From the NCBI GenBank assembly GCA_000004985.1, contig GG738875.1: a DNA stretch of 64,000 nucleotides. One strand, written 5' to 3'. The notes beneath the pieces are model-generated. The model searched no databases. It was given only the letters and a program-made list of their open reading frames with translations, and was not told where the DNA came from. The position numbers were made by a program, and so were the translations under genes. Below are positions 1,785-62,689 of this stretch, in pieces. The first letter of the stretch is position 1. Each line of letters opens with the position of its first letter. The DNA is from Naegleria gruberi. Lineage: Eukaryota.

Positions 1785-2426
1785 ATGCGANNNNNNNNNN
1801 NNNNNNNNNNNNNNNNNNNNNNNNNNNNNNNNNNNNNNNNATCTATGTTCTATTTGTTTGATGAACATAATGAATTATTCAGACCTGACTATTACAATAA
1901 GATTCCTGCTTCTTTTGCTTATTTTCAAGATTTTATCAGATGGACAGGAGTTACATCAGGGAATTATACAGTTACTATCTATTGTGGAAGTGCTCATAGC
2001 TCCTTCGAAGACCATTTACCAGGAGGAGAAAGAGGAAGGGTAGTTAGAATCACTCCTCCAACAACGACAGAGTTTGAACAACTTGTTTCAGCTGTGGGTT
2101 TGAACCCAAAGGATAAAAGAATAGCCCATGTAACAGGAAGAATTCCAAGAGAGTTGAAATACTTGACTGACCATTTGAAAGGTAAAAAGGGTACTGATGA
2201 AGATATCAATCATTTTATCACAGTAAGACAGGGAGAATATGCTTCTAGATTGCGCTCATTAGTTAACAAAATGGACAAAGAGGAGAATGATGAGTTTTTA
2301 AAAACACTTGAAGATCTTTTTACTCTGGGTCTTTTCGATGGAAGGCCTTGCACTGTTTCAGGAAATGTATACGATATGGGTTTACTATTCAAGGATTCTG
2401 ATCAAAACCTTTATATTATTGAGTGA
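1785..2426 (+). CDS. Hypothetical protein, 5' part interrupted by scaffold gap 1791-1840. ORF 1649-1790 is a possible upstream piece.
   Basis: ORF runs out of the N gap and extends about 195 codons beyond it. Frame relation to the upstream ORF is indeterminate because the gap length is unknown. Confidence 0.3.
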   Translation: MRXXXXXXXXXXXXXXXXXSMFYLFDEHNELFRPDYYNKIPASFAYFQDFIRWTGVTSGNYTVTIYCGSAHSSFEDHLPGGERGRVVRITPPTTTEFEQLVSAVGLNPKDKRIAHVTGRIPRELKYLTDHLKGKKGTDEDINHFITVRQGEYASRLRSLVNKMDKEENDEFLKTLEDLFTLGLFDGRPCTVSGNVYDMGLLFKDSDQNLYIIE

Positions 2427-3848: not shown

Positions 3849-3908
3849 NNNNNNNNNNNNNNNNNNNNNNNNNNNNNNNNNNNNNNNNNNNNNNNNNNAA
3901 ATCTCTTT

Positions 3909-7760: not shown

Positions 7761-8702
7761 TTAATGGTTGACTGGGGTAACCTTAAGAAGTTTCTTCAAA
7801 TCTTGGTTTTCAGTGTTGACTAAATTTACAGCCCTGAATCCATTGAGAGTTAATTTGTGTTTGTCAGCTCCATGATCAAGTAAATATTTACAAAGAGAAT
7901 AGTTTTGTTTGCAGGCAGCCAAATGTAGACATGTGTATCCATCAAAATCTGTAGCATTGAGATCCATACCTCTCTTTTCAATGAGATATTCCACAATTTG
8001 TGTGCTACCTCTTGCACAGGCAATGTGAAGGCAATTTTGTCCATAGGTTCTATTTCCAATCATAAAGTGATCATTGTTACACATTGGTGGAAGTAGATTT
8101 TCACACATCCAAATAAATTTTGAATAAGCATTGGAATAGGCAAAGTTCATAAGAAGGGTAGAACGATTGTAATCTTTCACATTGAAAATATTCAGAATGT
8201 CCATCGTTTCACGGTTACGATACAACATTTCATAAAGCTTACACAATTCACAGAACAGAGCTGTGCATTCCTGTTCTGGATCAAAAATTGCTTGTAACAC
8301 AACAGATTTTTCTATATAATGTTTCAAATTATAAACTCGAATCAAAACAAGTGGTCTTTCCAATTCGTATGAAATTATATTCTTCCAAGCAAACGGATTC
8401 TTTATCGTTTTCAATTCTTTCATGATGAAAATATCCACAAATTTCTCTTTAGGATCCAACAATTCTACTCTCATCACACAACTGTTACTTTTTTCATCGA
8501 AAAAACAAGATTCTACTCTTTGGAAATTACGAGAGAAATTATTTAAATACAATAATAGTTGAAAGGAAGGATCTTGATGAATAATTTGATAAAATTCGTG
8601 GCAAACTAAATTAGCAGATCGGAAGAGATTTTCCAGAGGTAAATACTCGAGAATGGAGTGATAAATTTCCCTTGGTAGTAATTGATTTTCTAATGATATC
8701 AT
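7761..8702 (-). CDS. F-box / ankyrin-repeat protein.
   Basis: N-terminal F-box-like LPREIYHSILEYLPLENLFRSANLVCHEFYQI. C-terminal ankyrin-type repeats (NCLHIACARGSTQIVEYLIEKRGMDLNATDFDGYTCLHLAACKQNYSLCKYLLDHGAD). Confidence 0.6.
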   Translation of the reverse strand: MISLENQLLPREIYHSILEYLPLENLFRSANLVCHEFYQIIHQDPSFQLLLYLNNFSRNFQRVESCFFDEKSNSCVMRVELLDPKEKFVDIFIMKELKTIKNPFAWKNIISYELERPLVLIRVYNLKHYIEKSVVLQAIFDPEQECTALFCELCKLYEMLYRNRETMDILNIFNVKDYNRSTLLMNFAYSNAYSKFIWMCENLLPPMCNNDHFMIGNRTYGQNCLHIACARGSTQIVEYLIEKRGMDLNATDFDGYTCLHLAACKQNYSLCKYLLDHGADKHKLTLNGFRAVNLVNTENQDLKKLLKVTPVNH

Positions 8703-8993: not shown

Positions 8994-11900
8994 ATGCCGC
9001 CACTCCTTTCCTTCCATTCTTCTTCCATTATTATCATCCTCATTCTCTTCATCAACAGCATTTTCTTCATTCACTCCTCATTGGCTTCATCTAAAACAAC
9101 AATTATAAAAACAACAGCAAATAATTACAATATTAAAATAGTGGCAGGAAGTTATGGCAATACCATTGATTCCTATCATTTTCCGATCATATCCGAGAGT
9201 CCAATTTATGTGCAATCATCCTCATCATCATCATCTGTGGTGGTGATGGAGAAGGAGGAGGATGATGGTGATGAAATAATATATTTATCAGATACACAGT
9301 TTTGTGTGGTGAGGAAAATTCAGAAAAGTTTGAGTGTTGTGGTGGCAGGAAATGGAATTTGTGCAGTTCCTGGAGAGACAAGTGGATTGGCTGTTGAATT
9401 TTCATTGACATCACCAGGTGGTGTTTATTTGGATGAATCTACTAATATATTATATATTTTGGATAATGGATTGAGTAATTCAGGAGGTTTTGTTAGAACT
9501 GTTGATATGTCAAGTGGAATGTTAAATACTTTGCAATTGACCTATGAACCTGCAGTGCTTATGTTAAAAAGTCCAACAATGATAACAAAGAATGGTGGAA
9601 TATTTTACATTGCTGATACTGGCAATAATGTTATTAGAAGTTTGACATTTACTGGACAAAATACTGCTCATTGTAAAGTAATTATTGGTGCAGTCAACCC
9701 TGACGTATCAATGAGTTGTGTTAATGTTGACCCATTGAGTTGTCAACTTTCTTCTCCAACAAGTATTACATTTTCATCTGATGGAATGATCATTACTGAC
9801 CAGCAAAACAGTAGATTTCTCGCTTTACAAAATGGAATTGTGTATCCATATTCTTTGGTAATACCAACTCCATTGCAAATAATGAGTTTGGGAAATGCTG
9901 AATATATAGTTTCGAATGGAGAAATATTGTATTCCCTCACACAAACCACAAAAAATGGTGCAGATTCAACTATTCTCCTGAAGGATAAAAGTTGGCCAAT
10001 TGGATATTTTGGAATTGATTCAGCACAAACTAATCTTTATTTCATGAGTCAATTGCCAAATTTAGCAGTATCACAAATTGTTAAATTCAACATTCAATCT
10101 CTTGGTCAGCCAACAGTCATTGGTGGTGCATATCCTTATACTTTGAGTCCAAACGTGCCTGCTTCTAGTTACTATTTTAATGGATTAACTCAATTAGAAT
10201 ATGTCAGTGATAGTGAAATTTATTTCGCATCCTATAATACAGATATTATCAAATTTGATATGACAGCAGGATTGGCCACAAGAATTGCTGGTAATATGAA
10301 TCAACCATCAGCGTTATCAAAAATTTCTAAAGGCCTATTAGTTGCAGATACTGTTAATAGGTTAATTAAACTTATTGATGGTGGTGGATCTGTCTCTACT
10401 GTAGCAGGTACAAATTCAAATGGAATAGGTTGTCCTGAAGGAGTTCAGGCTACTAGTTGTGAATTGAATTTACCCAGTGGTGTGGTAGGTACACCCTCAA
10501 TACTATCAAATCAATACATGTTTGTAATTGCTGACAGTAATGCTAATACTCTAAGGATGGTAGCTAATGATTTCACTGTTACAACATTAGCCAACTCTGT
10601 ATCAAATGTGAGATATCCAACGGGTTTATATTACACTGCTAATGGAGATTTATATTTTGCTAATACTGGAACTTCTCAAATAATGAAATTAGCTCATGAT
10701 AATACCATCGCAGTAATTGCAGGAACAGGAGAAAAAGGAAACAAAGGCGATGGTGGATTAGCTGTGAATGCTGCATTGAATTACCCAACACAGGTTACTG
10801 TCACTTCAAATGGAATATTGTATATAGCCGACACTGGCAACAATGCTATCAGAAAAATTGATTCCAATGGTATTATATCTACTGTTACACATAATGCTAT
10901 TCAAGGAATTAATGGTGTTGCCACGACTTCTGAGGGTGAACTACTATACGCTGATAGTTATACTGTAAGAATGATTCAATCGGTAGCATGTATTAATCCA
11001 CAAGGCCAAGTTTGTTCAAATCATGGGAAATGTGTGGATGGGCAATGTCTATGTGAAAGTGGATGGAGAGGTGATTCAGTGTGTGGAACTTTTTCATGTG
11101 ATATTCCAAAACCACCAAATGCACATAATTGTATTGGACCTAACCAGTATTCATGTATGAATGGTTGGTTTGGAGATTTGTGTAATTTACCAATTTGTTT
11201 TGGAATTCAATATAATAATTCAGCTGTTTGTAGCTCACATGGAAAATGTGTATCTAACAACACATGCAATTGTGAAAGTGGATGGAATGGAAATACAAAA
11301 TGTGGGACCTTTTCGTGTGACATTCCAAAACCACCAAACGCCTTTGAATGTATTGGACCTAATCAATATTCATGCATGACTGGTTGGTTTGGAAATTCTT
11401 GTGAACTACCAATTTGTTTTGGAATTCAATTTAATAATTCAGCTGTCTGTAGCTCACATGGACAATGTGTATCTAACAACACATGTATTTGTGAAAGTGG
11501 ATGGAGAGGTGATTCAGTGTGTGGAACTTTTTCATGTGATATTCCAAAACCACCAAACGGTCAGCAGTGTATTGGACCTAACCAGTATTCATGTATGAAT
11601 GGATGGTTTGGAGATTTGTGTAATTTACCAATGTGCTTTGGGATTCAATATAACAGCTCTTCTGTTTGTAGCTCACATGGAAAATGCATATCCAACAATA
11701 CATGCAATTGTGAAAGTGGATGGAATGGAAATAAGCAATGTGGGGCCTTTTCGTGTGACATTCCAAAACCACCAAACGCCTTTGAATGTATTGGACCTAA
11801 TCAATATTCATGTATGGATGGATGGTTTGGAGATTTGTGTACTTTTCCAATTTGTTTTGGAATTCAATTTAATAATTCAGCTGTTTGTAGCTCACATGGA

Positions 11901-13865
11901 AAATGTATTTCCAGTAATACATGCAAGTGTGAAAGTGGATGGAATGGAAATAACCAATGTGGAGCTTTTTCATGTGACATTCCTTCTCAACATGGAATTT
12001 GTATTGGTCCAAACACTTTCAAATGTCAAGATGGATGGACAGGACTCGAATGTGAAATTCCAATTTGTTTTGGAAAATTAGGAAATGATCCTAGAGTGTG
12101 TAACTCACAGGGAAGATGTATTTCTAATAATACATGTCAATGCAATAGTGGATGGAAAGGAAATTCTGAATGTTCTCAATTCTCATGTGATGGAATGGCT
12201 GAATGTTCTCAAAATGGTAAATGTATTTCTAATAATACATGCCAATGCAGATCAGGATGGTCTGGACCAAAATGTGATATTGTTGCATGTGATGGAGTTC
12301 AAAACTGTCATGCTAATGGTTTGTGTATTTCAAACAATACTTGCAAATGTAATAGTGGATGGGAAGGTCAATCATGTTTGGAGTATAATTGCAATGGTAC
12401 CAACAATTGTCAACCGAACGGTCTATGCATTTCGAATAATACTTGTAAATGTAATGATGAATTTGGTGGAAATGATTGTTCAATACCTTACTGTTTTGGA
12501 AAATTGGGTAATAGTGGATGTGAAGATAATGGAATTTGCTCATTTTTCAACAAGTGCTCATGTTTTCCTCTTTACTTTGGAGATCAATGTTCATGGTTAG
12601 ATTGTGATCCAACTTCAAAAGATACATCCCAAAATTCAACTAAAAGATGCTCCTCAAATGGTTATTGTGTTATGACCAGAAATAATTTGAATCAAAATTC
12701 TACCATTTGTGAATGTAATAAGGGATATAATGGTCAATTTTGCCAAAATAGTGATTCTACGAATGGATCGGGAACAATAGCTGCTATAGTTGTTACAATA
12801 CTTGTTATAATTTTGGTATTTATATTAATGATAAGTGTTGGTACTTTTATCTATGTTAAAAAGTTCAGAAACAAATATCAAGATCCAGAGAAAATGAAAA
12901 TGTTAAACAATACTACACCATCAACTTATTCAGAATCAAGTTGGTCAAATTCTCTCTCCATTCAGAATGACACTAGTTTAATAAGTAATACTCACAGTAG
13001 TATTTCATCAAAGACACATTTCAAAATTAGGGATAAAGAATACATAATGGAAAGAAAATTAGGAAGTGGTGCTAATGGTTCTGTATTTGTATTTAAGGAA
13101 ATTAATACCAATCAGCATTTTGCCGTAAAGCAAATAGAAGTAACAAATCCATTTGGTACGGAATTTAAAGAAGTCGTGAATATGTTTGAATTGACTGAGG
13201 ATTCTAATGCTCATATTGTACCAATTATTGGCTGTACAATGGTCGAGAATGGAGGATTCATTTGTATTCTCATGCCACTCTACAAGTGTGATTTGAGAGA
13301 TTGGATATATACAAATCAAAAATCAATCACAATTGATCTAATTATTGAAATTGTAAAACAAATTGCTTTAGGATTACAATATCTCCATTCCAAGAATATG
13401 ATACACAGAGATTTGAAACAAACAAACATATTCATTGCCAAAGCCAATGAAAAAGATGTATCAAAATGTGATGACTTTTTATTGTGCATTGGAGATTGGG
13501 GATCTTCCAGATCTAATTCACGATCTGGTCTGACTGTCTATGAAGGAACAATTCAATTCAGTTCTCCAGAAGCAATCATTAAGGGAGAAGTTGAACAAGC
13601 AAGTGATATTTGGAGTTTGGGATGTGTTTTCTATCAATTATTATCTGGAGATTATGAATCAATTTTGTTTAGGATTAAACAAGGCAATGATCTGGCAGAT
13701 AATGAAGTACTCTTACCAAAAATTCTTAATTTTGGTAAAAAGATGAATTACAGAGATGGAAAGGTTCAATTTTGTTTTGAATTATTGTGTGAAATGATTA
13801 GATATGATGCCAAGATGAGATTAACTGCCCATCAAATTTTAGCCAAGATTGAAAACTTTAAATAA
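8994..13865 (+). CDS. Receptor-like transmembrane kinase: signal peptide, NHL-type beta-propeller repeats, tandem tenascin-type EGF repeats, TM helix, cytoplasmic protein kinase domain.
   Basis: Hydrophobic N-terminus. Repeated YIADTGNNVIR/YIADTGNNAIRKI/YFANTGTSQIMKL NHL-like motifs. About 5 units of ~73 aa with the CxCxxGWxGxxC EGF pattern. TM stretch IAAIVVTILVIILVFILMISVGTFIYV. Kinase motifs GSGANGSV, AVKQ, HRDLKQTN, DWG (variant DFG), SSPE (variant APE). Confidence 0.7.
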   Translation: MPPLLSFHSSSIIIILILFINSIFFIHSSLASSKTTIIKTTANNYNIKIVAGSYGNTIDSYHFPIISESPIYVQSSSSSSSVVVMEKEEDDGDEIIYLSDTQFCVVRKIQKSLSVVVAGNGICAVPGETSGLAVEFSLTSPGGVYLDESTNILYILDNGLSNSGGFVRTVDMSSGMLNTLQLTYEPAVLMLKSPTMITKNGGIFYIADTGNNVIRSLTFTGQNTAHCKVIIGAVNPDVSMSCVNVDPLSCQLSSPTSITFSSDGMIITDQQNSRFLALQNGIVYPYSLVIPTPLQIMSLGNAEYIVSNGEILYSLTQTTKNGADSTILLKDKSWPIGYFGIDSAQTNLYFMSQLPNLAVSQIVKFNIQSLGQPTVIGGAYPYTLSPNVPASSYYFNGLTQLEYVSDSEIYFASYNTDIIKFDMTAGLATRIAGNMNQPSALSKISKGLLVADTVNRLIKLIDGGGSVSTVAGTNSNGIGCPEGVQATSCELNLPSGVVGTPSILSNQYMFVIADSNANTLRMVANDFTVTTLANSVSNVRYPTGLYYTANGDLYFANTGTSQIMKLAHDNTIAVIAGTGEKGNKGDGGLAVNAALNYPTQVTVTSNGILYIADTGNNAIRKIDSNGIISTVTHNAIQGINGVATTSEGELLYADSYTVRMIQSVACINPQGQVCSNHGKCVDGQCLCESGWRGDSVCGTFSCDIPKPPNAHNCIGPNQYSCMNGWFGDLCNLPICFGIQYNNSAVCSSHGKCVSNNTCNCESGWNGNTKCGTFSCDIPKPPNAFECIGPNQYSCMTGWFGNSCELPICFGIQFNNSAVCSSHGQCVSNNTCICESGWRGDSVCGTFSCDIPKPPNGQQCIGPNQYSCMNGWFGDLCNLPMCFGIQYNSSSVCSSHGKCISNNTCNCESGWNGNKQCGAFSCDIPKPPNAFECIGPNQYSCMDGWFGDLCTFPICFGIQFNNSAVCSSHGKCISSNTCKCESGWNGNNQCGAFSCDIPSQHGICIGPNTFKCQDGWTGLECEIPICFGKLGNDPRVCNSQGRCISNNTCQCNSGWKGNSECSQFSCDGMAECSQNGKCISNNTCQCRSGWSGPKCDIVACDGVQNCHANGLCISNNTCKCNSGWEGQSCLEYNCNGTNNCQPNGLCISNNTCKCNDEFGGNDCSIPYCFGKLGNSGCEDNGICSFFNKCSCFPLYFGDQCSWLDCDPTSKDTSQNSTKRCSSNGYCVMTRNNLNQNSTICECNKGYNGQFCQNSDSTNGSGTIAAIVVTILVIILVFILMISVGTFIYVKKFRNKYQDPEKMKMLNNTTPSTYSESSWSNSLSIQNDTSLISNTHSSISSKTHFKIRDKEYIMERKLGSGANGSVFVFKEINTNQHFAVKQIEVTNPFGTEFKEVVNMFELTEDSNAHIVPIIGCTMVENGGFICILMPLYKCDLRDWIYTNQKSITIDLIIEIVKQIALGLQYLHSKNMIHRDLKQTNIFIAKANEKDVSKCDDFLLCIGDWGSSRSNSRSGLTVYEGTIQFSSPEAIIKGEVEQASDIWSLGCVFYQLLSGDYESILFRIKQGNDLADNEVLLPKILNFGKKMNYRDGKVQFCFELLCEMIRYDAKMRLTAHQILAKIENFK
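10990..12060 (+). repeat. Tandem 219-bp coding repeats (EGF-like units) with a two-unit, ~438-bp higher-order periodicity.
   Basis: ccaatttgttttggaattcaat... recurs at about 11191, 11409, 11629, 11847 and 12059. Alternate units share GWRGDSVCGTFSC versus GWNGN.QCG.FSC variants. Confidence 0.8.
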
Positions 13866-38917: not shown

Positions 38918-39016
38918 TATCGCTCTTTGTTTTTCTGTTTCGTTTGCAATGTTAAGTTTCCCACAACTGCTTGTCTGTTTTGAAATGGTAGACTTGTGCC
39001 CTTTGTGCCTCCAATG

Positions 39017-39529
39017 TTAATAGAATAATGTTAATGTGCTGAATTTTTGTTCGAGAATGTCCTTTGAAATGTAACTCACTAATTGAGGTTTGTGGACCCA
39101 ATAGGCAATCGTGTGACTAGTGGCATTCACAAATGGTTGTTTGTTTTTCTTAAATCTATCACTGATATTTGCTTCAGTTTCTTGTATGTCGGCTCCTCTT
39201 AGAAACTTCAAATCAGATCCCTTAAAATTGTCTAAAAGAAGGAAAATCGCTTTAGTAAAGTCAAGGCTCATTCCTCCCTCAACAAGACCAAGCATTAAAA
39301 CTTTGCAAAAAGTTAAAGAGTCCCACAAATGATAATTTTCAAAATAAATCCTCTCGGAGTTTTTTTCTATTGTAGATTGCATTGTATTATTTACTTCTTT
39401 TGAGGATTGAGTTGTGGTGTTGTTCCTTTCTGTTACGGTTTGGCTTTCATTGTTTTGAGTTGTGTTGAAGAGAAATATTAAAAAAGCGATGAATGCAATA
39501 AACAAAATCAAATAGTCTGTTAAGGTCAT
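39017..39529 (-). CDS. Hypothetical signal-anchor membrane protein (copy 1).
   Basis: N-terminal TM helix LILFIAFIAFLIFLF. Duplicated at 43070-43684, where a 1-nt indel removes the stop. Confidence 0.4.
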   Translation of the reverse strand: MTLTDYLILFIAFIAFLIFLFNTTQNNESQTVTERNNTTTQSSKEVNNTMQSTIEKNSERIYFENYHLWDSLTFCKVLMLGLVEGGMSLDFTKAIFLLLDNFKGSDLKFLRGADIQETEANISDRFKKNKQPFVNATSHTIAYWVHKPQLVSYISKDILEQKFSTLTLFY

Positions 39530-40153
39530 TTTTTACATATTCTCCCATAAAAAATTGTTAGAACTAAGTACATCCACCATATTAAGACAAAATCTAGCAC
39601 ATTTATCATGCAATTTTATTGCAGTCTGTGAGTGAAGTAAATATGATAAATTGCCACTCTCTATACGTTAGAATTCAACGTCGTGGACTCTTGCTCAGTT
39701 CCAGAGGATTGTGAAACTTGGAATTATTGCTTCCTGTGTGTCAAAACACCATAATCCAAGTCATAATTGTGGTTGTTAAAAGGGAGGGTGGTATGTGGAT
39801 CGGAAGTTCAAATACTCTAATGAACAATCATAAACGACAAAATTTCGAAAATAATATCATCATGAAAAAGGTTAAATACTGTACAAGCTCCTTCCTAGTT
39901 CGTGTTGGTGTTTTTTAATAATGTATCGGGTGAGATTTCACTTACTGTAGTCGTTGGATTATCTACACACGAGGTATACATTTGAATTTCCAACATTTAA
40001 ACCCCACCAACTCCAAAACTTGCTTGAAATTCCGCTCACTCTTCCATTAAGATTCAAAATTAAGGAGTAGATTAGTAGCCGATTAAGGTCACCATCTACA
40101 GCTCAAATATAAAGCTGATTGGAAACCAGGTAACAATACTCCATATCGAAAAA

Positions 40154-40794
40154 ATGTTCAAATTCAACACCATCTATCTTTTAGTTGTTGTGGTAACTCT
40201 TTTCATCGCTTTGATAAACAACAATTCTCATGTCAATGCTCTTCAGTTGCAAACAAGAGCAAATTCCACATGTCAAGTTATGATTAACGGAGCAGAAGTT
40301 AATATTGCATCCATCGATAGACCAAAAGGATATTTTATCATTGCAAGATCTGATCATAATATCAAGTTCCTTCTGTAAGTTGTTTCGTTATGTGACATTT
40401 GCTTAATGTGTGAAAATGTAGTAATCTTTGTAATGCTTCTCCTAATCCATATTACTGGAATTCACTTTGTAAATTCCCAGCTAAATCTGCTGGATATCAA
40501 TTCGCTTTTGAATATAATCTTTGTTATTCACTTTCAACTCCAGAAAATCCAAAAGTTTCTTACAATAGTGAAACTAAAACAGTTACCATTACTCATCCTC
40601 CAAGTGTTATCAATAGAGATGGAGTTTCAAGACAAATGAAAGTTAGCTTAGTGTGTGACAGAAATTCAAGTTTGTGGCCAGAATTGGATTTCGAAGGAGA
40701 ACAAAACTTGTTGTCTATCGTTTCTCTGGAAAGACAAGTTATATTTGTCATTAATGAATCCTTTGCTGATAAAGATCTTTCAATTTGTTTCTAA
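40154..40794 (+). pseudogene. MRH (mannose-6-phosphate-receptor-homology)-like small secreted protein, copy 1: join(40154..40374, 40422..40794). A 10-bp deletion relative to copy 2 shifts the frame of the C-terminus.
   Basis: Signal peptide, then 47-nt intron GTAAGT...TGTAG. Copy 1 lacks agatatggag present in copy 2, replacing the conserved ...RYGVVVYRFSGKTSYICH end with an unrelated tail. Confidence 0.4.
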
Positions 40795-41219
40795 TTGTTA
40801 GTTTACTTTTCGTATTATCCATGTTGGAAAATTCACCATTAGTGAATTTTATTGATGGTTTGATGATGATGATCATATAGATATTTACCTTAATGATCGG
40901 AAGTGAATTTGCTGGTGATCTTTATCATAAACGCTATTCCAAAATGATGATGAGTTCAGTGATGATGTAGAGGAGTGGAAAGTGAGTAGAGAGCAATCAT
41001 TTTGTTTCTACATTGCTGTTGTTGATTTTGTAGCAGTTGTTTATTGCTTCCCAAGGAAAAAATTGATCAATTATGGCTTAATTTTTGATTTTGCATGACC
41101 AATTTGATTGTAAGAAATATCAAGTGATGTTAATTGTTTCATTTCACTTATGAATTTGGCTCCTTCATTATCAATTTCATTGCTACTAATATTAAGTAAT
41201 GTTAATTGTTTCATTTCGC

Positions 41220-42029
41220 TTATAATTTTGATTTTGCATGACCAATTTGATTGTAAGAAATATCAAGTGATGTTAATTGTTTCATTTCACTTATGAATTT
41301 GGCTCCTTCATTATCAATTTCATTGCTACTAATATTAAGTAATGTTAATTGTTTCATTTCACTTATGAATTTGGCTCCTTCATCACCAATTTGATTGTTA
41401 GAAATATCAAGTGATGTTAATTGTTTCATTTCACTTATGAATTTGGCCCCTTCATCATCAATTTCATTGCTACTAATATTAAGTAATGTTAATTGTTTCA
41501 TTTCAGTTATGAATTTGGCTCCTTCAATACCAATTTGATTGTTAGAAATATCAAGTGATGTTAATTGTTTCATTTCAGTTATCGATTTAGCTCCTTCATC
41601 ACCAATTCGATTGCAACCTATATTAAGTGATGTTAATTGTTTCATTTCACTTATGAATTTGGTGTTTTCTATGTCACCAAGCAACCAACCAGAAAAATTA
41701 AGATTAACAATACTATTCACGAATTGACTTTTTCTGAATAGTTCAATTCTTTTCTCTGTAAACTTTTTTTTAAATTCAATTACAAGTTTTGAACGTTCCT
41801 TGATCACATTAAAGAATTGTTTTGAAATTAAAGAACAATTATTCAAAATAAACCATGAATCATCAATCATGGAAATTATTTCAAAGCAAACATCATCCGA
41901 AAATATTTCAATCTTCATCTCCATATTGTTATGATTGATCACAATTATTAATATTAATATTATTAGTATTCTTATATATTTGATATAGTTTGTTGTAACT
42001 TGTTTGTTCTTTGCTTTTCGACTTGACAC
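41220..42029 (-). CDS. F-box / leucine-rich-repeat protein (ribonuclease-inhibitor-type 24-aa LRRs), copy 1 with 7 LRR units.
   Basis: N-terminal F-box-like DDVCFEIISMIDDSWFILNNCSLISKQFFNVI. Tandem units EMKQLTSLDISNNQIGDEGAKFIS. The 72-bp DNA periodicity is visible at 41100-41650. Confidence 0.65.
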   Translation of the reverse strand: MSSRKAKNKQVTTNYIKYIRILIILILIIVINHNNMEMKIEIFSDDVCFEIISMIDDSWFILNNCSLISKQFFNVIKERSKLVIEFKKKFTEKRIELFRKSQFVNSIVNLNFSGWLLGDIENTKFISEMKQLTSLNIGCNRIGDEGAKSITEMKQLTSLDISNNQIGIEGAKFITEMKQLTLLNISSNEIDDEGAKFISEMKQLTSLDISNNQIGDEGAKFISEMKQLTLLNISSNEIDNEGAKFISEMKQLTSLDISYNQIGHAKSKL

Positions 42030-42763
42030 CTTCTTGATATTTGCTTTTAAATATTTTTTTTGGTTCTAAACTCGAAGAGGAAATGATTCGTGATAATTTT
42101 TCTGGATCGCTGACTTCAAATGATTGGTAAGGTGACACAATATCCAACCATTATCTGTGGATATGAAGTAATATTTCAGATCGTTGTCAGCATTTTTCCT
42201 CAGTGAATCTGTAGTTTCACTCTTGAGAGCCTTATTTATCATTGCTCATGCGAAGAGGAGCTTTGAACAATAGGAGAGGTAGAAATGACAAACCTACAGA
42301 CAGATGCCATCCTTTCCACGTGACATATATCAACTGGAGATGAAAGCACTTGTGTGTCAAAACACCATAATCTAAATCTTAATTCTGAGCTAACCACCCC
42401 TTTCAATTGTTTTGAACACTGAGTAATAATTACTGGTAATAAATAGCTGAATTGGTCAAAATTTAGAAAAGATTCAACACTGCTTCCCATTGAATTTTCA
42501 AAACAATTGTCATTATTAATAAAATCCAATTTAAACATGTCAATCCGTCCTACCAAAGATGGAGATCAAGTTATCAATTCACATACTGGTTAGCCGTTCT
42601 TGTTCAATTACCAAATTATTTCACATGATTCAAAAAACATCAGTGATTAAAATTTACCTGTAGTTCTGACAGAGGCAAATTAGTCAACAAGAATGTCAAA
42701 TGTCTACATCATTTCATTCACAAAAAAATATCAACAAAATAGCAACATCAAAAACACATCAAA

Positions 42764-43003
42764 ATGGGTAACGGTATTTCTAGAGACGAAATGAAACAGC
42801 TTCAAGAGCAAACTAAAAATCGTTTGACCAAGAAGGACATTCAACGTTATCACAAATTCTGGCATGAGCTCTACCCAAGTGGTGACATGACAAGAGAAGG
42901 TTTCAGTAAATTTGCACAAATTGCTCTTCCAAGTGCTCCTCCAGATGCTGATGTTGAATACTTGTTCAGAGCCATGGATGCTAACAAGGATGGTACTATT
43001 ACT
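42764..43003 (+). CDS. Exon 1 of the duplicated EF-hand (NCS/calcineurin-B-like) gene, copy 1. Truncated by the scaffold gap.
   Basis: Identical to 46939-47178. Followed by a GTAAGT donor and then N's. Confidence 0.4.
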
Positions 43004-43069
43004 GTAAGTGTGTTATATATTTTGAAATAGTAGTGGTTTTTACGCTAATTGATGATGATGATTTTGATA

Positions 43070-43684
43070 TTATNNNNNNNNNNNNNNNNNNNNNNNNNNN
43101 NNNNNNNNNNNNNNNNNNNNNNNCTTGTCTGTTTTGAAATGGTAGACTTGTGCCCTTTGTGCCTCCAATGTATAATAGAATAATGTTAATGTGCTGAATT
43201 TTTGTTCGAGAATGTCCTTTGAAATGTAACTCACTAATTGAGGTTTGTGGACCCAATAGGCAAGCGTGTGACTAGTGGCATTCACAAATGGTTGTTTGTT
43301 TTTCTTAAATCTATCACTGATATTTGCTTCAGTTTCTTGTATGTCGGCTCCTCTTAGAAACTTCAAATCAGATCCCTTAAAATTGTCTAAAAGAAGGAAA
43401 ATCGCTTTAGTAAAGTCAAGGCTCATTCCTCCCTCAACAAGACCAAGCATTAAAACTTTGCAAAAAGTTAAAGAGTCCCACAAATGATAATTTTCAAAAT
43501 AAATCCTCTCGGAGTTTTTTTCTATTGTAGATTGCATTGTATTATTTACTTCTTTTGAGGATTGAGTTGTGGTGTTGTTCCTTTCTGTTGCGGTTTGGCT
43601 TTCATTGTTTTGAGTTGTGTTGAAGAGAAATATTAAAAAAGCGATGAATGCAATAAACAAAATCAAATAGTCTGTTAAGGTCAT
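43070..43684 (-). CDS. Hypothetical signal-anchor membrane protein (copy 2). C-terminus runs into gap 43074-43123.
   Basis: Identical to copy 1 except for a few substitutions and an indel near the 3' end. Confidence 0.35.
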   Translation of the reverse strand: MTLTDYLILFIAFIAFLIFLFNTTQNNESQTATERNNTTTQSSKEVNNTMQSTIEKNSERIYFENYHLWDSLTFCKVLMLGLVEGGMSLDFTKAIFLLLDNFKGSDLKFLRGADIQETEANISDRFKKNKQPFVNATSHTLAYWVHKPQLVSYISKDILEQKFSTLTLFYYTLEAQRAQVYHFKTDKXXXXXXXXXXXXXXXXX

Positions 43685-44308
43685 TTTTTACATATTCTCC
43701 CATAAAAAATTGTTAGAACAAAGCACATCCTCCATATTAAGACAAAATCTAGCACATTTATCATGCAATTTTATTGCAGTCTGTGAGTGAAGTAAATATG
43801 ATAAATTGCCACTCTCTATACGTTAGAATTCAACGTCGTGGACTCTTGCTCAGTTCCAGAGGATTGTGAAACTTGGAATTATTGCTTCCTGTGTGTCAAA
43901 ACACCATAATCCAAGTCATAATTGTGGTTGTTAAAAGGGAGGGTGGTATGTGGATCGGAAGTTCAAATACTCTAATGAACAATCATAAACGACAAAATTT
44001 CGAAAATAATATCATCATGAAAAAGGTTAAATACTGTACAAGCTCCTTCCTAGTTCGTGTTGGTGTTTTTTAATAATGTATCGGGTGAGATTTCACTTAC
44101 TGTAGTCGTTGGATTATCTACACACGAGGTATACATTTGAATTTCCAACATTTAAACCCCACCAACTCCAAAACTTGCTTGAAATTCCGCTCACTCTTCC
44201 ATTAAGATTCAAAATTAAGGAGTAGATTAGTAGCCGATTAAGGTCACCATCTACAGCTCAAATATAAAGCTGATTGGAAACCAGGTAACAATACTCCATA
44301 TCGAAAAA

Positions 44309-44919
44309 ATGTTCAAATTCAACACCATCTATCTTTTAGTTGTTGTGGTAACTCTTTTCATCGCTTTGATAAACAACAATTCTCATGTCAATGCTCTTCA
44401 GTTGCAAACAAGAGCAAATTCCACATGTCAAGTTATGATTAACGGAGCAGAAGTTAATATTGCATCCATCGATAGACCAAAAGGATATTTTATCATTGCA
44501 AGATCTGATCATAATATCAAGTTCCTTCTGTAAGTTGTTTCGTTATGTGACATTTGCTTAATGTGTGAAAATGTAGTAATCTTTGTAATGCTTCTCCTAA
44601 TCCATATTACTGGAATTCACTTTGTAAATTCCCAGCTAAATCTGCTGGATATCAATTCGCTTTTGAATATAATCTTTGTTATTCACTTTCAACTCCAGAA
44701 AATCCAAAAGTTTCTTACAATAGTGAAACTACAACAGTTACCATTACTCATCCTCCAAGTGTTATCAACAGAGATGGAGTTTCAAGACAAATGGAAGTTA
44801 GCTTAGTGTGTGATAGAAATTCAAGTTTGTGGCCAGAATTGGATTTCGAAGGAGAACAAAACAGATATGGAGTTGTTGTCTATCGTTTCTCTGGAAAGAC
44901 AAGTTATATTTGTCATTAA
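44309..44919 (+). CDS. MRH-domain-like small secreted protein, intact copy: join(44309..44529, 44577..44919).
   Basis: Signal peptide MFKFNTIYLLVVVVTLFIALI. 47-nt intron with GTAAGT donor and TGTAG acceptor. Cys spacing STCQV...FLLNLC...NLCYS...LVCDR...YIC and the GYQFAFEYNLC motif fit an MRH fold. Confidence 0.45.
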
Positions 44920-45246
44920 TGAATCCTTTGCTGATAAAGATCTTTCAATTTGTTAGATTATTGACTTTTCTAATTGTTGGTTTACTTTTCGTATTATCCA
45001 TGTTGGAAAATTCACCATTAGTGAATTTTATTGATGGTTTGATGATGATCATATAGATATTTACCTTAATGATCGGAAGTGAATTTGCTGGTGATCTTTA
45101 TCATAAACGCTATTCCAAAATGATGATGAGTTCAGTGATGATGTAGAGGAGTGGAAAGTGAGTAGAGAGCAATCATTTTGTTTCTACATTGCTGTTGTTG
45201 ATTTTGTAGCAGTTGTTTATTGCTTCCCAAGGAAAAAATTGATCAA

Positions 45247-46203
45247 TTATGGCTTAATTTTTGATTTTGCATGACCAATTTGATTGTAAGAAATATCAAG
45301 TGATGTTAATTGTTTCATTTCACTTATGAATTTGGCTCCTTCATTATCAATTTCATTGCTACTAATATTAAGTAATGTTAATTGTTTCATTTCACTTATG
45401 AATTTGGCTCCTTCATCACCAATTTGATTGTTAGAAATATCAAGTGATGTTAATTGTTTCATTTCACTTATGAATTTGGCCCCTTCATCATCAATTTCAT
45501 TGCTACTAATATTAAGTAATGTTAATTGTTTCATTTCACTTATGAATTTGGCTCCCTCAACACCAATTTCATTGCTACTAATATTAAGTAATGTTAATTG
45601 TTTCATTTCACTTATGAATTTGGCCCCTTCAACACCAATTTGATTGCTAGAAATTTTAATTGATGTTAATTGTTTCATTTCAGTTATGAATTTGGCTCCT
45701 TCAATACCAATTTGATTGTTAGAAATATCAAGTGATGTTAATTGTTTCATTTCAGTTATCGATTTAGCTCCTTCATCACCAATTCGATTGCAACCTATAT
45801 TAAGTGATGTTAATTGTTTCATTTCACTTATGAATTTGGTGTTTTCTATGTCACCAAGCAACCAACCAGAAAAATTAAGATTAACAATACTATTCACGAA
45901 TTGACTTTTTCTGAATAGTTCAATTCTTTTCTCTGTAAACTTTTTTTTAAATTCAATTACAAGTTTTGAACGTTCCTTGATCACATTAAAGAATTGTTTT
46001 GAAATTAAAGAACAATTATTCAAAATAAACCATGAATCATCAATCATGGAAATTATTTCAAAGCAAACATCATCCGAAAATATTTCAATCTTCATCTCCA
46101 TATTGTTATGATTGATCACAATTATTAATATTAATATTAGTATTCTTATATATTTGATATAGTTTGTTGTAACTTGTTTGTTCTTTGCTTTTCGACTTGA
46201 CAC
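45247..46203 (-). CDS. F-box / leucine-rich-repeat protein, copy 2 with 9 LRR units.
   Basis: Same as copy 1 with two extra 24-aa LRR units (318 vs 269 aa). Confidence 0.65.
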   Translation of the reverse strand: MSSRKAKNKQVTTNYIKYIRILILILIIVINHNNMEMKIEIFSDDVCFEIISMIDDSWFILNNCSLISKQFFNVIKERSKLVIEFKKKFTEKRIELFRKSQFVNSIVNLNFSGWLLGDIENTKFISEMKQLTSLNIGCNRIGDEGAKSITEMKQLTSLDISNNQIGIEGAKFITEMKQLTSIKISSNQIGVEGAKFISEMKQLTLLNISSNEIGVEGAKFISEMKQLTLLNISSNEIDDEGAKFISEMKQLTSLDISNNQIGDEGAKFISEMKQLTLLNISSNEIDNEGAKFISEMKQLTSLDISYNQIGHAKSKIKP

Positions 46204-46938
46204 CTTCTTGATATTTGCTTTTAAATATTTTTTTTGGTTCTAAACTAGAGAAGGAAATGATTCGTGATAATTTTTCTGGATCGCTGACTTCAAATGATTG
46301 GTTAGGTGATACAATATCCAACCATTATCTGTGGATATGAAGTAATATTTCAGATCTTTGTTGAGGACTCAGCATTTTTCCTCAGTGAATCTGTAGTTTC
46401 ACTCTTGAGAGCCTTATTTATCATTGCTCATGCGAAGAGGAGCTTTGAACAATAGGAGAGGTAGAAATGACAAACCTACAGACAGATGCCATCCTTTCCA
46501 CGTGACATATATCAACTGGAGATGAAAGCACTTGTGTGTCAAGACACCATAATCTAAATCTTAATTCTGAGCTAACCACCCCTTTCAATTGTTTTGAACA
46601 CTGAGTAATAATTACTGGAAATAATATATAGCTGAATTGGTCAAAATTTAAAAAAGATTCAACACTGCTTCCCATTGAATTTTCAAAACAATTATATCCA
46701 ATATAAACATGTCAATCCGTCCTACCAAAGATGGAGATCAAGTTGATATCAATTCACATACTGGTTAGCCGTTCTTGTTCAATTACCAAATTATTTCACA
46801 TGATTCAAAAAACATCAGTGATTAAAATTTACCTGTAGTTCTGACAGAGGCAAATTAGTCAACAAGAATGTCAAATGTCTACATCATTTCATTCACAAAA
46901 AAATATCAACAAAATAGCAACATCAAAAACACATCAAA

Positions 46939-47973
46939 ATGGGTAACGGTATTTCTAGAGACGAAATGAAACAGCTTCAAGAGCAAACTAAAAATCGTTT
47001 GACCAAGAAGGACATTCAACGTTATCACAAATTCTGGCATGAGCTCTACCCAAGTGGTGACATGACAAGAGAAGGTTTCAGTAAATTTGCACAAATTGCT
47101 CTTCCAAGTGCTCCTCCAGATGCTGATGTTGAATACTTGTTCAGAGCCATGGATGCTAACAAGGATGGTACTATTACTGTAAGTGTGTTATATATTTTGA
47201 AATAGTAGTGGTTTTTACGCTAATTGATGATGATGATTTTGATATTATTATTTGTGTGTATGATGTGTTATAATTTCTTGTTATTGTTGATGTAAATTTG
47301 ATATGATTTGATATATGATCATGGAATATTTCGTTATTATGTTGTTATGAATTGTTTAAAATTATTAATTGGAATGTTAATGATGCAATACGTAATTTTA
47401 CATAACGATCATCATGATGAACTTCTACACTAATTATTACCATTGCTACCACTTGAATATTTTGCATTGATTGTATATATATGAATATTTATAATCGTTT
47501 AATAATAACACATTGATCAAACTCTTCCGAAAACACTCTACAATTCAGTTCAAAGAATTCCTCTTCTTCCAATCTATCACTGCTCCAACAACACAACCTC
47601 TTCAATTCCATGAATTAATTGATTTGGCCTTTGATATGTACGATGAAGACAATGATGGGTATGTTTTTACATCTATTTAACTAATTAATCAATACAATAT
47701 ATATTATTAATATTATCATCATCAATTCATCATCATCAAAATACAACAACAATTATATATAGCTTTGTAACTGCCGAAGAAATGAGAGACAGTTTAAGGA
47801 ACATGTTCAAGGCTAAGGGCATGAATGTAAACTCTTCAGAAATTGAGGGAACCATCAATACTCGTATTGAAAATCTGCTCAAGATTGCCGATAGTAATGG
47901 TGATGGAAAACTCACCCGAGATGAAATTGTTAAGGCTTGCCAAAAAGATCCATCTCTCTTGGTCTTGTTCTAA
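46939..47973 (+). CDS. Neuronal-calcium-sensor / calcineurin-B-like EF-hand protein, three exons: join(46939..47178, 47549..47658, 47763..47973), 186 aa.
   Basis: N-myristoylation-type start MGNGIS. Three canonical EF loops DANKDGTITFKEF, DEDNDGFVTAEEM, DSNGDGKLTRDEI. GTAAGT/GTATGT donors and AG acceptors preserve the frame. Confidence 0.6.
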
Positions 47974-59458: not shown

Positions 59459-60955
59459 TTACCAGAACACATTGAAGTATGGTTCGATTTCATGTTCATA
59501 AAGAAGATCATCATCTTGTTCAATTTTCACAAAGGCAAAACAATTCACCTCCACAATGTGATCCTTGGCTTGCTCTTCATTGTCAACCTGGTAAACTACT
59601 TGATCGCAAACATTGCAAAATCTATTACTATTTTTGTAAACTTGTAGAGATTCAAATTTGAGAGGACATTTGTAGATACATTCGCATTGATTGACTAAAT
59701 TCCATTCATACTCTTTAATTCTGTAATATTTCTTTCGTTCTTTTGAAATATTAATAGTAGGATTATGTATTTTGATGTGATTGATTCTTCTTCTAAGAAC
59801 GCAAAGCCAATTCTTGATATTTAGGTTGTTTCCATTAAAGTTTGGAAAATAAAAACAAACTAATGGTTTCCAAATTTCCAATTGAACTCTTTCAAATGCT
59901 GAACTTTCTTCATTGACGATAGAGGTGATGTTATCGACAACATGACAAAGGGCTCCAGAATTATCTGATTGTGGATCTATTCTTCTATTGAAGAATAGAC
60001 TCAATAATGATTGGTTTACCCATCGCAAATCTATTCAATTCTGATAAATTCAGAAACTTCCAATCAGTATTAGAATCTCAGATGGCAATTCATAGATAGT
60101 AAATTGTGAAATAGATTCTCCAGTACCCAAATCCACATTAATACTACAAATATTCATTAATCCATTTAAAATACTGTGTGGAATAGATGCTGAATTGGGA
60201 ATATCCAATTCTAATCCAATACTTGCCACATTATCCATTGCTTCCTGAACTAACTTATTCAATTCGGGTGTGGTCGTTAAATTCATTAATTTCATATATG
60301 AACGGTTCCAAACCACAGGTGAATTCTCATAGTAATTCAACACCTTCAATCCATATTCAATTACTGGCATCATGTCTAACATTTCCAATAAATCAGCTTG
60401 CATTTTTCCAATTTTCTCTCCCTCACTCAAAATTAAACAATCTCTACAAGATTCCACCTGTCCCACTATTGTTCGAAACACAACTCCCAATTGTTGAAAC
60501 ATTGGAGCAAGTATAGGAACTGGAATGGTGGCGGTGAATCCACTTCTGATGTAAATATTGCGTGGAGATCTTTCTCCAATTTTTGCCCTTGTTTCAAATT
60601 TGAAAGATTGAATTTGTTCAATCAATTCTTCAATTTCTGATGAATTTGTAAAGATTAGTCCAACATTTCCATTCAAATATTCGCAAATTTTGAGTAATGA
60701 CTCTGGATTGTGTTTCCTCTCCGAGGGTTTCACATTAAATTGAATGTCCTGAGCCAAGTTTCGAATAGCACTCTTGATCAATGTATTCTTTCCTTTCAAT
60801 AATATTGCTCTTCCTCTCAATTTCATTCGAATTATTTGCAATTGATCCGATTTCATACGAGTATCTATTTCAACAATAATTACATTCGAATGATCATGAA
60901 AATGTTGAATGACATCCTCGAATTTTACACTATTTTCATCATCATTCATTTTCAC
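59459..60955 (-). pseudogene. P0/Mrt4 (uL10)-like domain + F-box + Cys-rich C-terminal domain protein, disrupted copy. ORFs 60050-60955 and 59459-60028 are separated by a compensating -1/+1 indel pair with two in-frame TGA codons.
   Basis: Colinear with the intact paralog 61274-62689. Relative to it, ...agtttc-tgaattt... lacks a T and ...gggtaaaccaatca... has one extra base. Between the two, the frame reads F*IYQN*. Confidence 0.55.
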
Positions 60956-61273
60956 TTATTATTGATTTTAAAAATATGATGAACGTGCAATTGGTTCCAA
61001 GAGTGAGTTGCCGTATTTTTTTTTAATTTTACAGTAAATTTCAGAATTTACTTTTTTAAAGAGCAATTACAATCTTTGTAATGTGTTAATGAGATTAAAA
61101 TATTCAGATATTTATTAAGGTTCAATGAGATTCTCTTTACAATTTGCACAGAGTTTATTGTGGGTGCTGGTTTAATGTCTGGTTTCACACTTGGTTTACT
61201 TTCCATTGACATACAATGCATTGGATATTCTCAAATCGACTGAAAAGGAGTGAAAGGTTGCTGCTCGTTTGGC

Positions 61274-62689
61274 TCATTCATCCCAATAAATAATTCCCAT
61301 AGCTAAATCATCATCGTATTCATCCCCTCCTTCCACAAAAGCAATGCAATTTCCCTTAATGATATGATGTTTGGCTTGTTCTTCACTACCAACTTGGTAA
61401 ACTATCTTGTTGCAGACATTACACATTCTACTGGAAGAGGTGTGAAGTGGAAGAGAATCGTATTTGAGAGGACATTTGTAGATCCATTCACATTGGTTGA
61501 TGAGATTCCATTCGTAACTCTTAATTGCAAAAGATTCGTTTCTTGCTGATGCAAGGTTGACTGAAGGCATGTGTAGCTTGATATGGTCAATTCTTCTTCT
61601 GAGAACGTGGAGCCAATTCTTGATATTTAAATTATTTTTCCTAAAGTTAGGGAAGTAGAAACAAACTAATGGTTTCCAAATTTCCAATTGAACTCGTGTA
61701 AATAGTTCACTCTCTTCATTTATCATAGCAATTGAATTCTTGAGTGATTTCTCAATTGAATGAGATTGTGAAATAATTCTTCTATTGAAGAATAGACTCA
61801 ATAATGATTGATTACCCATCGCAAATCTATTCAATTCTGATAAATTCAAGAAACTTGCAATTAATATCAAAATTTCAGATGGTAATTCATTTACAGTAAA
61901 TTGTTGAATGGAATTAATTGTTCTCAGTTCTACCAAAACTCGACCGACATTCAATAATCCATTGAAAAGACTATGTGGAATAGATGCTGAATTCGGAATA
62001 TCCAATTCTAATCCAATACTTGCCACATTATCTACTGCTTCCTGAATTATACTATTCAAATTTAGAGATGCTCTCAGGTTTTCATATGTTTGATTCCAAA
62101 CCACGTGTGAATTTTCATAGGAAGCTACCACTTTCAGTCCGTATGCAATCATCGGTTCCATCTTCAACAATTCCAAAAAATCTGCCTTTTCCTTTGTAAT
62201 TTTCTCTCCAGCTCTCAAAAGTAAAAAATCTGTCGATGCATATACATCCTGTTGAGCTATGTCTCCAACCTTTGCCTTTGCTTCAAATTTGAAAGATTGA
62301 ATTTGTTCAATCAATTCTTCAATTTCTGTTGAATTTGTAAAGATTAGTCCAACATTTCCTCTCAAATATTCGCAAATTTGATAAAGAACTTCTGGATTGT
62401 GCTTCCACTCTGATGGTTTCACATTAAATTGAATATCCTGAGCCAAGTTTCGAATAGCACTTCTGATCAATGTATTCTTTCCCACCAATAATTCGGCCTT
62501 CTCTCTCAATTTCATTCGAACTATTTGTAACTGATCCGATTTCATTCGAGGATGTATTTTAATAATAATTACATTCGAATGATCATGAAAATGTTGAATG
62601 ACCTTCTCGAATTTTGCACATTTATGAGAGAGACCCTTCTTTTCGGAATGAAATTGTTGTTTTGAAGCTGATTCGTCCAAGTTTTTCAT
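61274..62689 (-). CDS. Ribosomal P0/Mrt4 (uL10)-like domain fused to an F-box and a Cys-rich C-terminal domain (intact paralog).
   Basis: QLQIVRMKLREKAELLVGKNTLIRSAIR, LRGNVGLIFTNSTEIEELIEQIQSFKF and LLRAGEKITKEKADFLELL match uL10/P0/Mrt4 conserved blocks. F-box-like LPSEILILIASFLNLSELNRFAMGNQS. C-terminal CPLKYDSL...CNVCNKIVYQV. Confidence 0.6.
   Translation of the reverse strand: MKNLDESASKQQFHSEKKGLSHKCAKFEKVIQHFHDHSNVIIIKIHPRMKSDQLQIVRMKLREKAELLVGKNTLIRSAIRNLAQDIQFNVKPSEWKHNPEVLYQICEYLRGNVGLIFTNSTEIEELIEQIQSFKFEAKAKVGDIAQQDVYASTDFLLLRAGEKITKEKADFLELLKMEPMIAYGLKVVASYENSHVVWNQTYENLRASLNLNSIIQEAVDNVASIGLELDIPNSASIPHSLFNGLLNVGRVLVELRTINSIQQFTVNELPSEILILIASFLNLSELNRFAMGNQSLLSLFFNRRIISQSHSIEKSLKNSIAMINEESELFTRVQLEIWKPLVCFYFPNFRKNNLNIKNWLHVLRRRIDHIKLHMPSVNLASARNESFAIKSYEWNLINQCEWIYKCPLKYDSLPLHTSSSRMCNVCNKIVYQVGSEEQAKHHIIKGNCIAFVEGGDEYDDDLAMGIIYWDE

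Follow-up and report, generated by a model that had tools for sequence, protein, structure and literature searches.

Two adjacent copies of a four-gene block in Naegleria gruberi are probably alleles of one locus set side by side across a scaffold gap

A four-gene block on both sides of a scaffold gap

The DNA considered here is a 64-kb stretch of contig GG738875.1 from the Naegleria gruberi assembly GCA_000004985.1 (hereafter the window), in which a block of about 4.1 kb occurs twice, each copy carrying a membrane-protein gene, a secreted-protein gene, a leucine-rich repeat (LRR) gene and the first exon of an EF-hand gene. Scanning of the window by direct-repeat search and self-BLAST revealed a single long repeat pair, 38970-43073 versus 43124-47248, arranged head-to-tail, and self-BLAST detected no third similar sequence within the 64 kb. 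The two copies are 97.49% identical over 4144 alignment columns by BLAST (45 mismatches and 12 gap openings), and a global alignment with MAFFT gave 48 substitutions together with 10 indels, each 1-14 nucleotides (nt) long. Solely a run of 50 N separates them:

38970-43073, strand not applicable: copy 1, 4104 nt that form the right end of the contig preceding the gap (BLAST and MAFFT, 97.5% identity to copy 2)
43074-43123, strand not applicable: scaffold gap, 50 N
43124-47248, strand not applicable: copy 2, 4125 nt that open the contig following the gap, running unbroken into the remaining part of the EF-hand gene

The alignment is flush with the gap on both sides, the final base of copy 1 adjoining the N run and copy 2 beginning right after it. 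Three N runs are present in the window (1791-1840, 3849-3898 and 43074-43123) and each consists of exactly 50 N, indicating that the gap length is a placeholder. No similarity was found between the sequences flanking the gaps at 1791-1840 and 3849-3898, the overlap being confined to the third gap. Because the alignment touches both edges of this gap, the duplicated block probably constitutes the overlap of two contig ends. The copies are identical for 502 nt past their last difference at the end of copy 1, a segment that includes EF-hand exon 1, and for 48 nt ahead of their first difference at the start of copy 2; the end of copy 1, in EF-hand exon 1/intron 1, reads …GATGATTTTGATATTAT and the block starts with CTTGTCTGTTTTGAAATGG….

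A preceding reading of this DNA, made from the letters alone (the sequence-only reading), had described two head-to-tail copies that hold the same four genes and meet exactly at the 50-N gap. Its coordinates and offsets are correct and the similarity is far above chance, the N run 43074-43123 alone lies between the copies, and the open reading frames (ORFs), along with exon 1 of the EF-hand gene, were found in each of them.

The right-hand boundary of the block falls within the EF-hand gene:

42764-43003, plus strand: EF-hand gene exon 1, copy 1, the contig ending after only 70 nt of intron 1
46939-47973, plus strand: complete EF-hand gene, copy 2, with exons 46939-47178, 47549-47658 and 47763-47973, GT-AG introns and a product of 186 amino acids

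The boundary of copy 2 (47248) is situated 70 nt inside intron 1, and the remaining EF-hand gene is encountered only after copy 2; this location inside an intron signifies that the contig end cuts copy 1 of the gene. The spliced product of 186 amino acids matches Pfam EF-hand_7 (E=2e-21) and EF-hand_1 (E=9e-19), confirming the paired EF-hand motifs.

Divergence between the copies

In the global alignment, 27 apparent substitutions cluster at 41218-41485, an artefact of forcing two LRR indels into register. Once the LRR arrays are aligned unit against unit, 21 substitutions in ~3.9 kb (0.55%), nine small indels and two opposite two-unit LRR indels of 143 and 144 nt separate the copies. The raw identity of 97.5% is in the range of allelic divergence (about 98%, below 99.5%), and the copies diverge from each other no more than the window diverges from a second strain over single-copy flank (97.4% identity, described below). 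Scattered substitutions had already been illustrated in the sequence-only reading by a pair of 20-mers, which we located at 39561 and 43716. The differences between the copies are most likely real allelic variation, and the candidate alleles are most likely a null-like frameshift in the secreted-protein gene, a truncated LRR gene and a stop-loss in the membrane-protein gene. Two of these lesions affect the left half of the block:

39017-39529, minus strand: membrane-protein ORF, copy 1, 170 amino acids with a hydrophobic N-terminal segment
43124-43684, minus strand: membrane-protein ORF, copy 2, with its stop codon removed, reading on into the gap, and with two amino-acid substitutions
40154-40983, plus strand: signal-peptide/Cys-rich (secreted-protein) gene, copy 1, 3' exons placed approximately from three-frame translation and splice sites
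44309-45159, plus strand: signal-peptide/Cys-rich gene, copy 2, exon 2 intact through '...YRFSGKTSYIC'

A 1-nt indel at 39017/43172 (an insertion at 43172), which the sequence-only reading had overlooked, abolishes the stop codon of the copy-2 membrane ORF; homologue and Pfam searches with the 170-residue ORF returned no homologues and no Pfam family. The secreted-protein gene has a signal-peptide-like start and in copy 1 is composed of exon 1 (40154-40373), a 47-nt GT-AG intron (40374-40420) and a Cys-rich exon 2, the first exon of copy 2 beginning at 44309. The 10-nt indel AGATATGGAG is present in copy 2 at 44863-44872 and missing after 40707 in copy 1. As had been proposed, this deletion frameshifts the copy-1 gene: the indel maps to exon 2 and the frameshift is seen in the translation. 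A further indel, of 14 nt, lies in the secreted-protein gene region of copy 2 (44953-44966). The name 'MRH' that had been attached to this gene finds no support from Pfam, PDB sequence or homologue searches: at E<=1 the secreted protein gave no MRH match in Pfam, only two sub-threshold and unrelated matches, it had no PDB sequence match at E<=10, and no homologues were found in the protein collection. The homologue search also found no match for a pooled query that combined left-flank ORFs, exons of the secreted-protein gene and the N-terminus of the LRR protein.

Remodelling of the LRR array

The LRR gene and the tandem array that encodes its repeats account for the largest differences between the copies:

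41220-41924, minus strand: LRR gene, copy 1, 234 amino acids from ATG, Pfam LRR_6 E=2.2e-33
45247-46101, minus strand: LRR gene, copy 2, 284 amino acids from ATG, 8 'MKQLT' units of 24 amino acids, Pfam LRR_6 E=2.6e-42
41094-41662, minus strand: LRR-coding tandem array, copy 1, 7.9 units of 72 nt (Tandem Repeats Finder)
45270-45839, minus strand: LRR-coding tandem array, copy 2, 7.9 units of 72 nt (Tandem Repeats Finder)

The arrays have a higher-order period of 144 nt and differ in length by only 1 nt. We laid them out in 72-nt rows and scored every unit pair between the copies. Units 0-2 of copy 1 correspond to units 0-2 of copy 2, units 3-5 of copy 1 are identical to units 5-7 of copy 2, and units 7-8 match units 7-8, while unit 6 of copy 1 (41198-41268, 71 nt) is a hybrid in which 43 nt of the terminal unit are followed by the tail of a regular unit. 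Relative to copy 2, copy 1 is devoid of units 3-4 (144 nt) and gains 143 nt near the end of the array, made up of the hybrid terminal-type unit and a second copy of unit 7. The hybrid unit, which contains TTATAAGCG, holds an in-frame TAA that ends the copy-1 ORF, leaving two more LRR units (41054-41197) untranslated downstream of the stop. The ORFs end after 6 'MKQLT' units in copy 1 versus 8 in copy 2 (269 versus 318 amino acids for the ORFs as listed). The count of 7 versus 9 LRR units given in the sequence-only reading therefore applies to the ORFs, being caused by the premature stop in the hybrid unit, but not to the DNA arrays, both of which have 7.9 units. Its view that the difference documents gain or loss of units holds insofar as two independent two-unit events can be distinguished, but the net array length is unchanged. 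The array differences most likely constitute real sequence variation, allelic in nature rather than paralogue divergence.

The best PDB match of the LRR protein is the GALA protein 9j7j_A (E=1.3e-46). GALA proteins carry an F-box. The resemblance to GALA-type and RI-like LRR proteins extends across the repeats, with 24-residue units of the form 'EGAKxISEMKQLTSLDISNNxIGD' and matches to both LRR_6 and GALA, but the GALA match is limited to the LRR part and the N-terminus has no F-box match. With residues 1-93 as the query, no F-box family (PF00646/PF12937) was detected in Pfam at E<=1, and the full ORFs gave none at E<=0.001, such that nothing in the Pfam searches supports the F-box substrate-recognition N-terminus once ascribed to this gene. 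An ankyrin-repeat ORF elsewhere in the window (7761-8702, minus strand) has an F-box-like N-terminus in Pfam (E=3e-6), indicating that an F-box is detectable in this genome and that the N-terminus of the LRR gene is not recognised as one.

Contigs from a second strain

An ORF of 793 amino acids located beside copy 2 has just two relatives in a collection of 5.8 billion proteins: one, from Naegleria lovaniensis, is 39% identical, and the other, encoded in the ENA metagenome assembly ERZ929261, is 99% identical. These relatives mark the source as a Naegleria-like heterolobosean amoeba. Exact-protein look-ups with this ORF and with the 170-residue membrane ORF had no match. The metagenome contig L001 (ERZ929261) is 97.4% identical to positions 51886-47890 of the window (4.0 kb, 48 mismatches, 25 gaps), implying the existence of a second strain whose single-copy sequence is no less different from this genome than copies 1 and 2 are from each other. 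At the N. lovaniensis locus, the listed neighbours have no genes in common with the window. Literature searches on the ENA project accession PRJEB11402 and on Naegleria heterozygosity returned no papers and nothing directly usable, respectively.

Exact look-up of the EF-hand exon-1 ORF recovered another contig of the same strain, L003 (1701 nt), and a scan of JGI metagenomes with the exon-1 peptide found nothing informative, its yield being L004 and L005, two distant EF-hand loci of a generic kind (58% over 26 amino acids). Nucleotides 116-1064 of L003 align with copy 1 (42133-43073) at 98.8% identity, and copy 2 matches less well. Eleven events distinguish the copies in this overlap; L003 has the copy-1 state at nine of them, including a 13-nt indel and both 3-nt indels, and the copy-2 state at two, including an 8-nt indel. 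Over the shared 941 nt, copy 1 is separated from L003 by 6 events, as against 11 from copy 2. Such a mosaic of copy-1 and copy-2 states is as would be expected of alleles of one locus in a recombining population. L003 then passes the position of the copy-1 contig end unbranched, its next 637 nt matching 47249-47897 on the downstream side of copy 2. This continuity places copy-1-type sequence at the position of copy 2, beside the downstream flank, in another genome.

Just past the contig end, L003:1065-1075 differs from the window (47249-47260) by a 4-nt indel and a single-nucleotide polymorphism, the indel lying 3 nt past the end of copy 1. The site varies between the strains and is set in TAT/TG sequence of low complexity. 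This polymorphic site could be the cause of the copy-1 contig ending where it does.

The opposite end of L003 is rearranged relative to the window. Nucleotides 5-33 match 40338-40366 and nucleotides 49-118 match 40884-40953, after which the contig jumps to 42133, so that this strain is without 40954-42132 (1179 nt), comprising the entire LRR gene, at a junction with a 3-nt TGA microhomology. The empty site reads …AAAATGATGATGA up to the junction and CACAATATCC… beyond it. In addition, 15 unrelated nt replace 40367-40883 (517 nt), a segment that contains exon 2 of the secreted-protein gene, and an 87-codon ORF spans both junctions. We considered nucleotides 1-118 of L003 as spliced complementary DNA and rejected this possibility, since neither junction falls at a GT-AG splice site and L003 still contains both EF-hand introns. 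The pooled query of left-flank, secreted-protein and LRR sequences recovered no more second-strain contigs covering 36.8-42.1 kb. From the contig sequences, the LRR gene looks like a presence/absence polymorphism between strains, and the structural variability of the locus fits with an assembler failing to collapse haplotypes.

Other features of the window

The window has a G+C content of 34% and encodes proteins of eukaryotic type, among them RasGEF/DOCK-C2, EGF/NHL receptor kinase, actin, ankyrin/F-box-like and PhoPQ-related proteins. A tandem repeat of ~438 nt (85-88% identity) at 11045-11983, within an EGF/NHL/protein-kinase ORF of 1623 amino acids (8994-13865), presumably corresponds to repeated EGF modules. 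An older tandem pair, 59525-60955 versus 61331-62623, is gap-free and 76-89% identical; its ORFs (60050-60955 and 61274-62689, both on the minus strand) both match Pfam Ribosomal_L10 (P0/Mrt4-like).

Interpretation of the repeated block

We conclude that the apparent tandem duplication is probably a false heterotype duplication, an assembly artefact in which two alleles of a single-copy four-gene locus have come to lie on either side of a gap. The genome would contain one such locus, and the sequenced amoeba would have harboured two diverged haplotypes, or the culture two variants. Owing to the 8-14-nt indels and the two 2-unit LRR rearrangements, the assembler would not have merged the haplotypes, producing one contig with the left flank and haplotype 1 (copy 1) and another with haplotype 2 (copy 2) and the right flank, which the scaffolder would then have set side by side with a 50-N placeholder, even though the true gap distance would be about -4.1 kb. 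The geometry, the level of divergence and the continuity in the other strain were observed directly; the heterozygosity of the isolate and the behaviour of the assembler are inferred. The sequence-only reading had entitled the locus a tandem segmental duplication while offering either a duplication or haplotypes assembled in tandem as its origin. The repeat pair is indeed present, but it is probably an assembly artefact and not a gene duplication, the second of the two origins being favoured by the overlap of the contig ends, the divergence level and the continuity of L003.

Several observations weigh against this conclusion. We rejected the argument that an alignment touching both contig ends proves an overlap artefact, because a true tandem duplication gives identical geometry: the same arrangement would result if the ends of the repeated unit were hidden in the gap or if a de Bruijn-graph assembler broke the contigs at the junction. 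Moreover, the case is built on assembled sequence, two of the window's three gaps do not show the overlap pattern, and L003 comes from a different strain of differing structure, in which the LRR gene and secreted-protein exon 2 are both missing, and which offers nothing direct on copy number in the sequenced isolate. Finally, the older and real tandem pair at 59.5-62.7 kb demonstrates that sequences in this genome do become duplicated in tandem.

A genuine tandem duplication of at least 4.1 kb, comprising the four genes, with its junction at or inside the gap and with paralogues that are diverging while copy 1 decays, is an explanation that we regard as unlikely, albeit one to be taken seriously. 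Decay would account for the frameshifted secreted-protein gene, the truncated LRR gene and the orphan EF-hand exon 1 of copy 1, and the fact that both truncating lesions (the frameshift and the premature stop) reside in copy 1 is what might be seen in a redundant copy, yet copy 2 is lesioned too, by the stop-loss in the membrane-protein gene, and the final 502 nt of the block, including the supposedly orphan exon, are identical between the copies. Both copies are fully phased across 4.1 kb, each with distinct lesions, a graph assembler would break contigs at the ends of a duplicated unit, and there are other tandem paralogues in the window (59525-62623). The diagnostic junction from unit end to unit start is, however, not in the assembly, a gap being found in its place, whereas L003, the sole independent contig across this position, proceeds from the unit end to the downstream flank, although it derives from another strain and so is not conclusive. 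Since copy 1 is closer to L003 than to copy 2 (6 versus 11 events), a duplication would predate the split of the strains, yet L003 is without a second copy at the boundary. The empirical prior for such geometry, moreover, strongly favours mis-assembly (PMC2864568).

It is very improbable that the blocks are both real but non-adjacent, as would be the case if one contig came from a paralogous locus elsewhere in the genome, or from another strain in a culture that was not clonal, and had been wrongly joined. The join is supported by the placeholder 50-N gap only and a mixed culture would mimic the pattern of heterozygosity, but L003 ties copy-1-type sequence to the flank of copy 2, indicating that both contigs belong to the same locus, no further similar sequence is present within the window, and a mixed culture is operationally equal to the artefact that we favour.

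Taken at face value, the block would introduce three false genes and a false gene fragment into the annotation, inflate the count of the LRR family and wrongly suggest rapid divergence of paralogues. Reading it as uncollapsed haplotypes removes these false gene gains, marks the scaffold join as a negative gap for merging and yields a phased pair of alleles in which the LRR array is remodelled in two-unit steps; as an artefact it has no wider consequence. A more far-reaching proposal, which we put forward as a doubtful one, is that structural variation has a natural hotspot at this locus of a free-living amoeba, regardless of whether the duplication is real. This proposal draws on the LRR array having both lost and gained units two at a time (143/144 nt). 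Null alleles of the neighbouring genes may segregate at the locus, and a 1.18-kb LRR gene that is present or absent between strains would fit with LRR genes being gained and lost as cassettes.

Comparison with known systems

The block shares with recent tandem segmental duplications that undergo paralogue decay its head-to-tail arrangement, the same gene content in both copies and disabling indels in one of them. It departs from them in having no junction sequence, in a divergence that is not above the allelic level, and in that an independent strain has copy-1-type sequence at the single downstream position.

A further known system is that of duplicated overlapping contigs (DOCs), in which heterozygous sequence is split into two contigs that keep some shared sequence at opposite ends and are juxtaposed by mate pairs (PMC2864568). 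Mate-pair tests classified 5,698 of 5,947 DOCs as mis-assembled in chicken, 13,159 of 13,571 in chimpanzee and 1,094 of 1,366 in cow, or 80-97% (Kelley & Salzberg 2010, PMC2864568), and the false copies have a median identity of 98.1% (PMC2864568). Ko et al. 2022 (PMC9516828) count a gap between duplicates on one scaffold among the primary hallmarks of such false heterotype duplications. The published diagnoses were made from mate-pair distances, half read depth and 1-copy k-mers, whereas ours comes from assembled sequence, and at 4.1 kb the block is larger than most vertebrate cases (mostly under 2 kb). In other respects the resemblance is close: the alignment of the facing ends of the adjacent contigs leaves 0 bp unaligned at either contig end, the copies are separated by a gap on the same scaffold, their identity of 97.5% compares with the published median of 98.1%, and each contig has a little shared sequence at its inner end, matching the published DOC figure, with a gene cut at the contig end.

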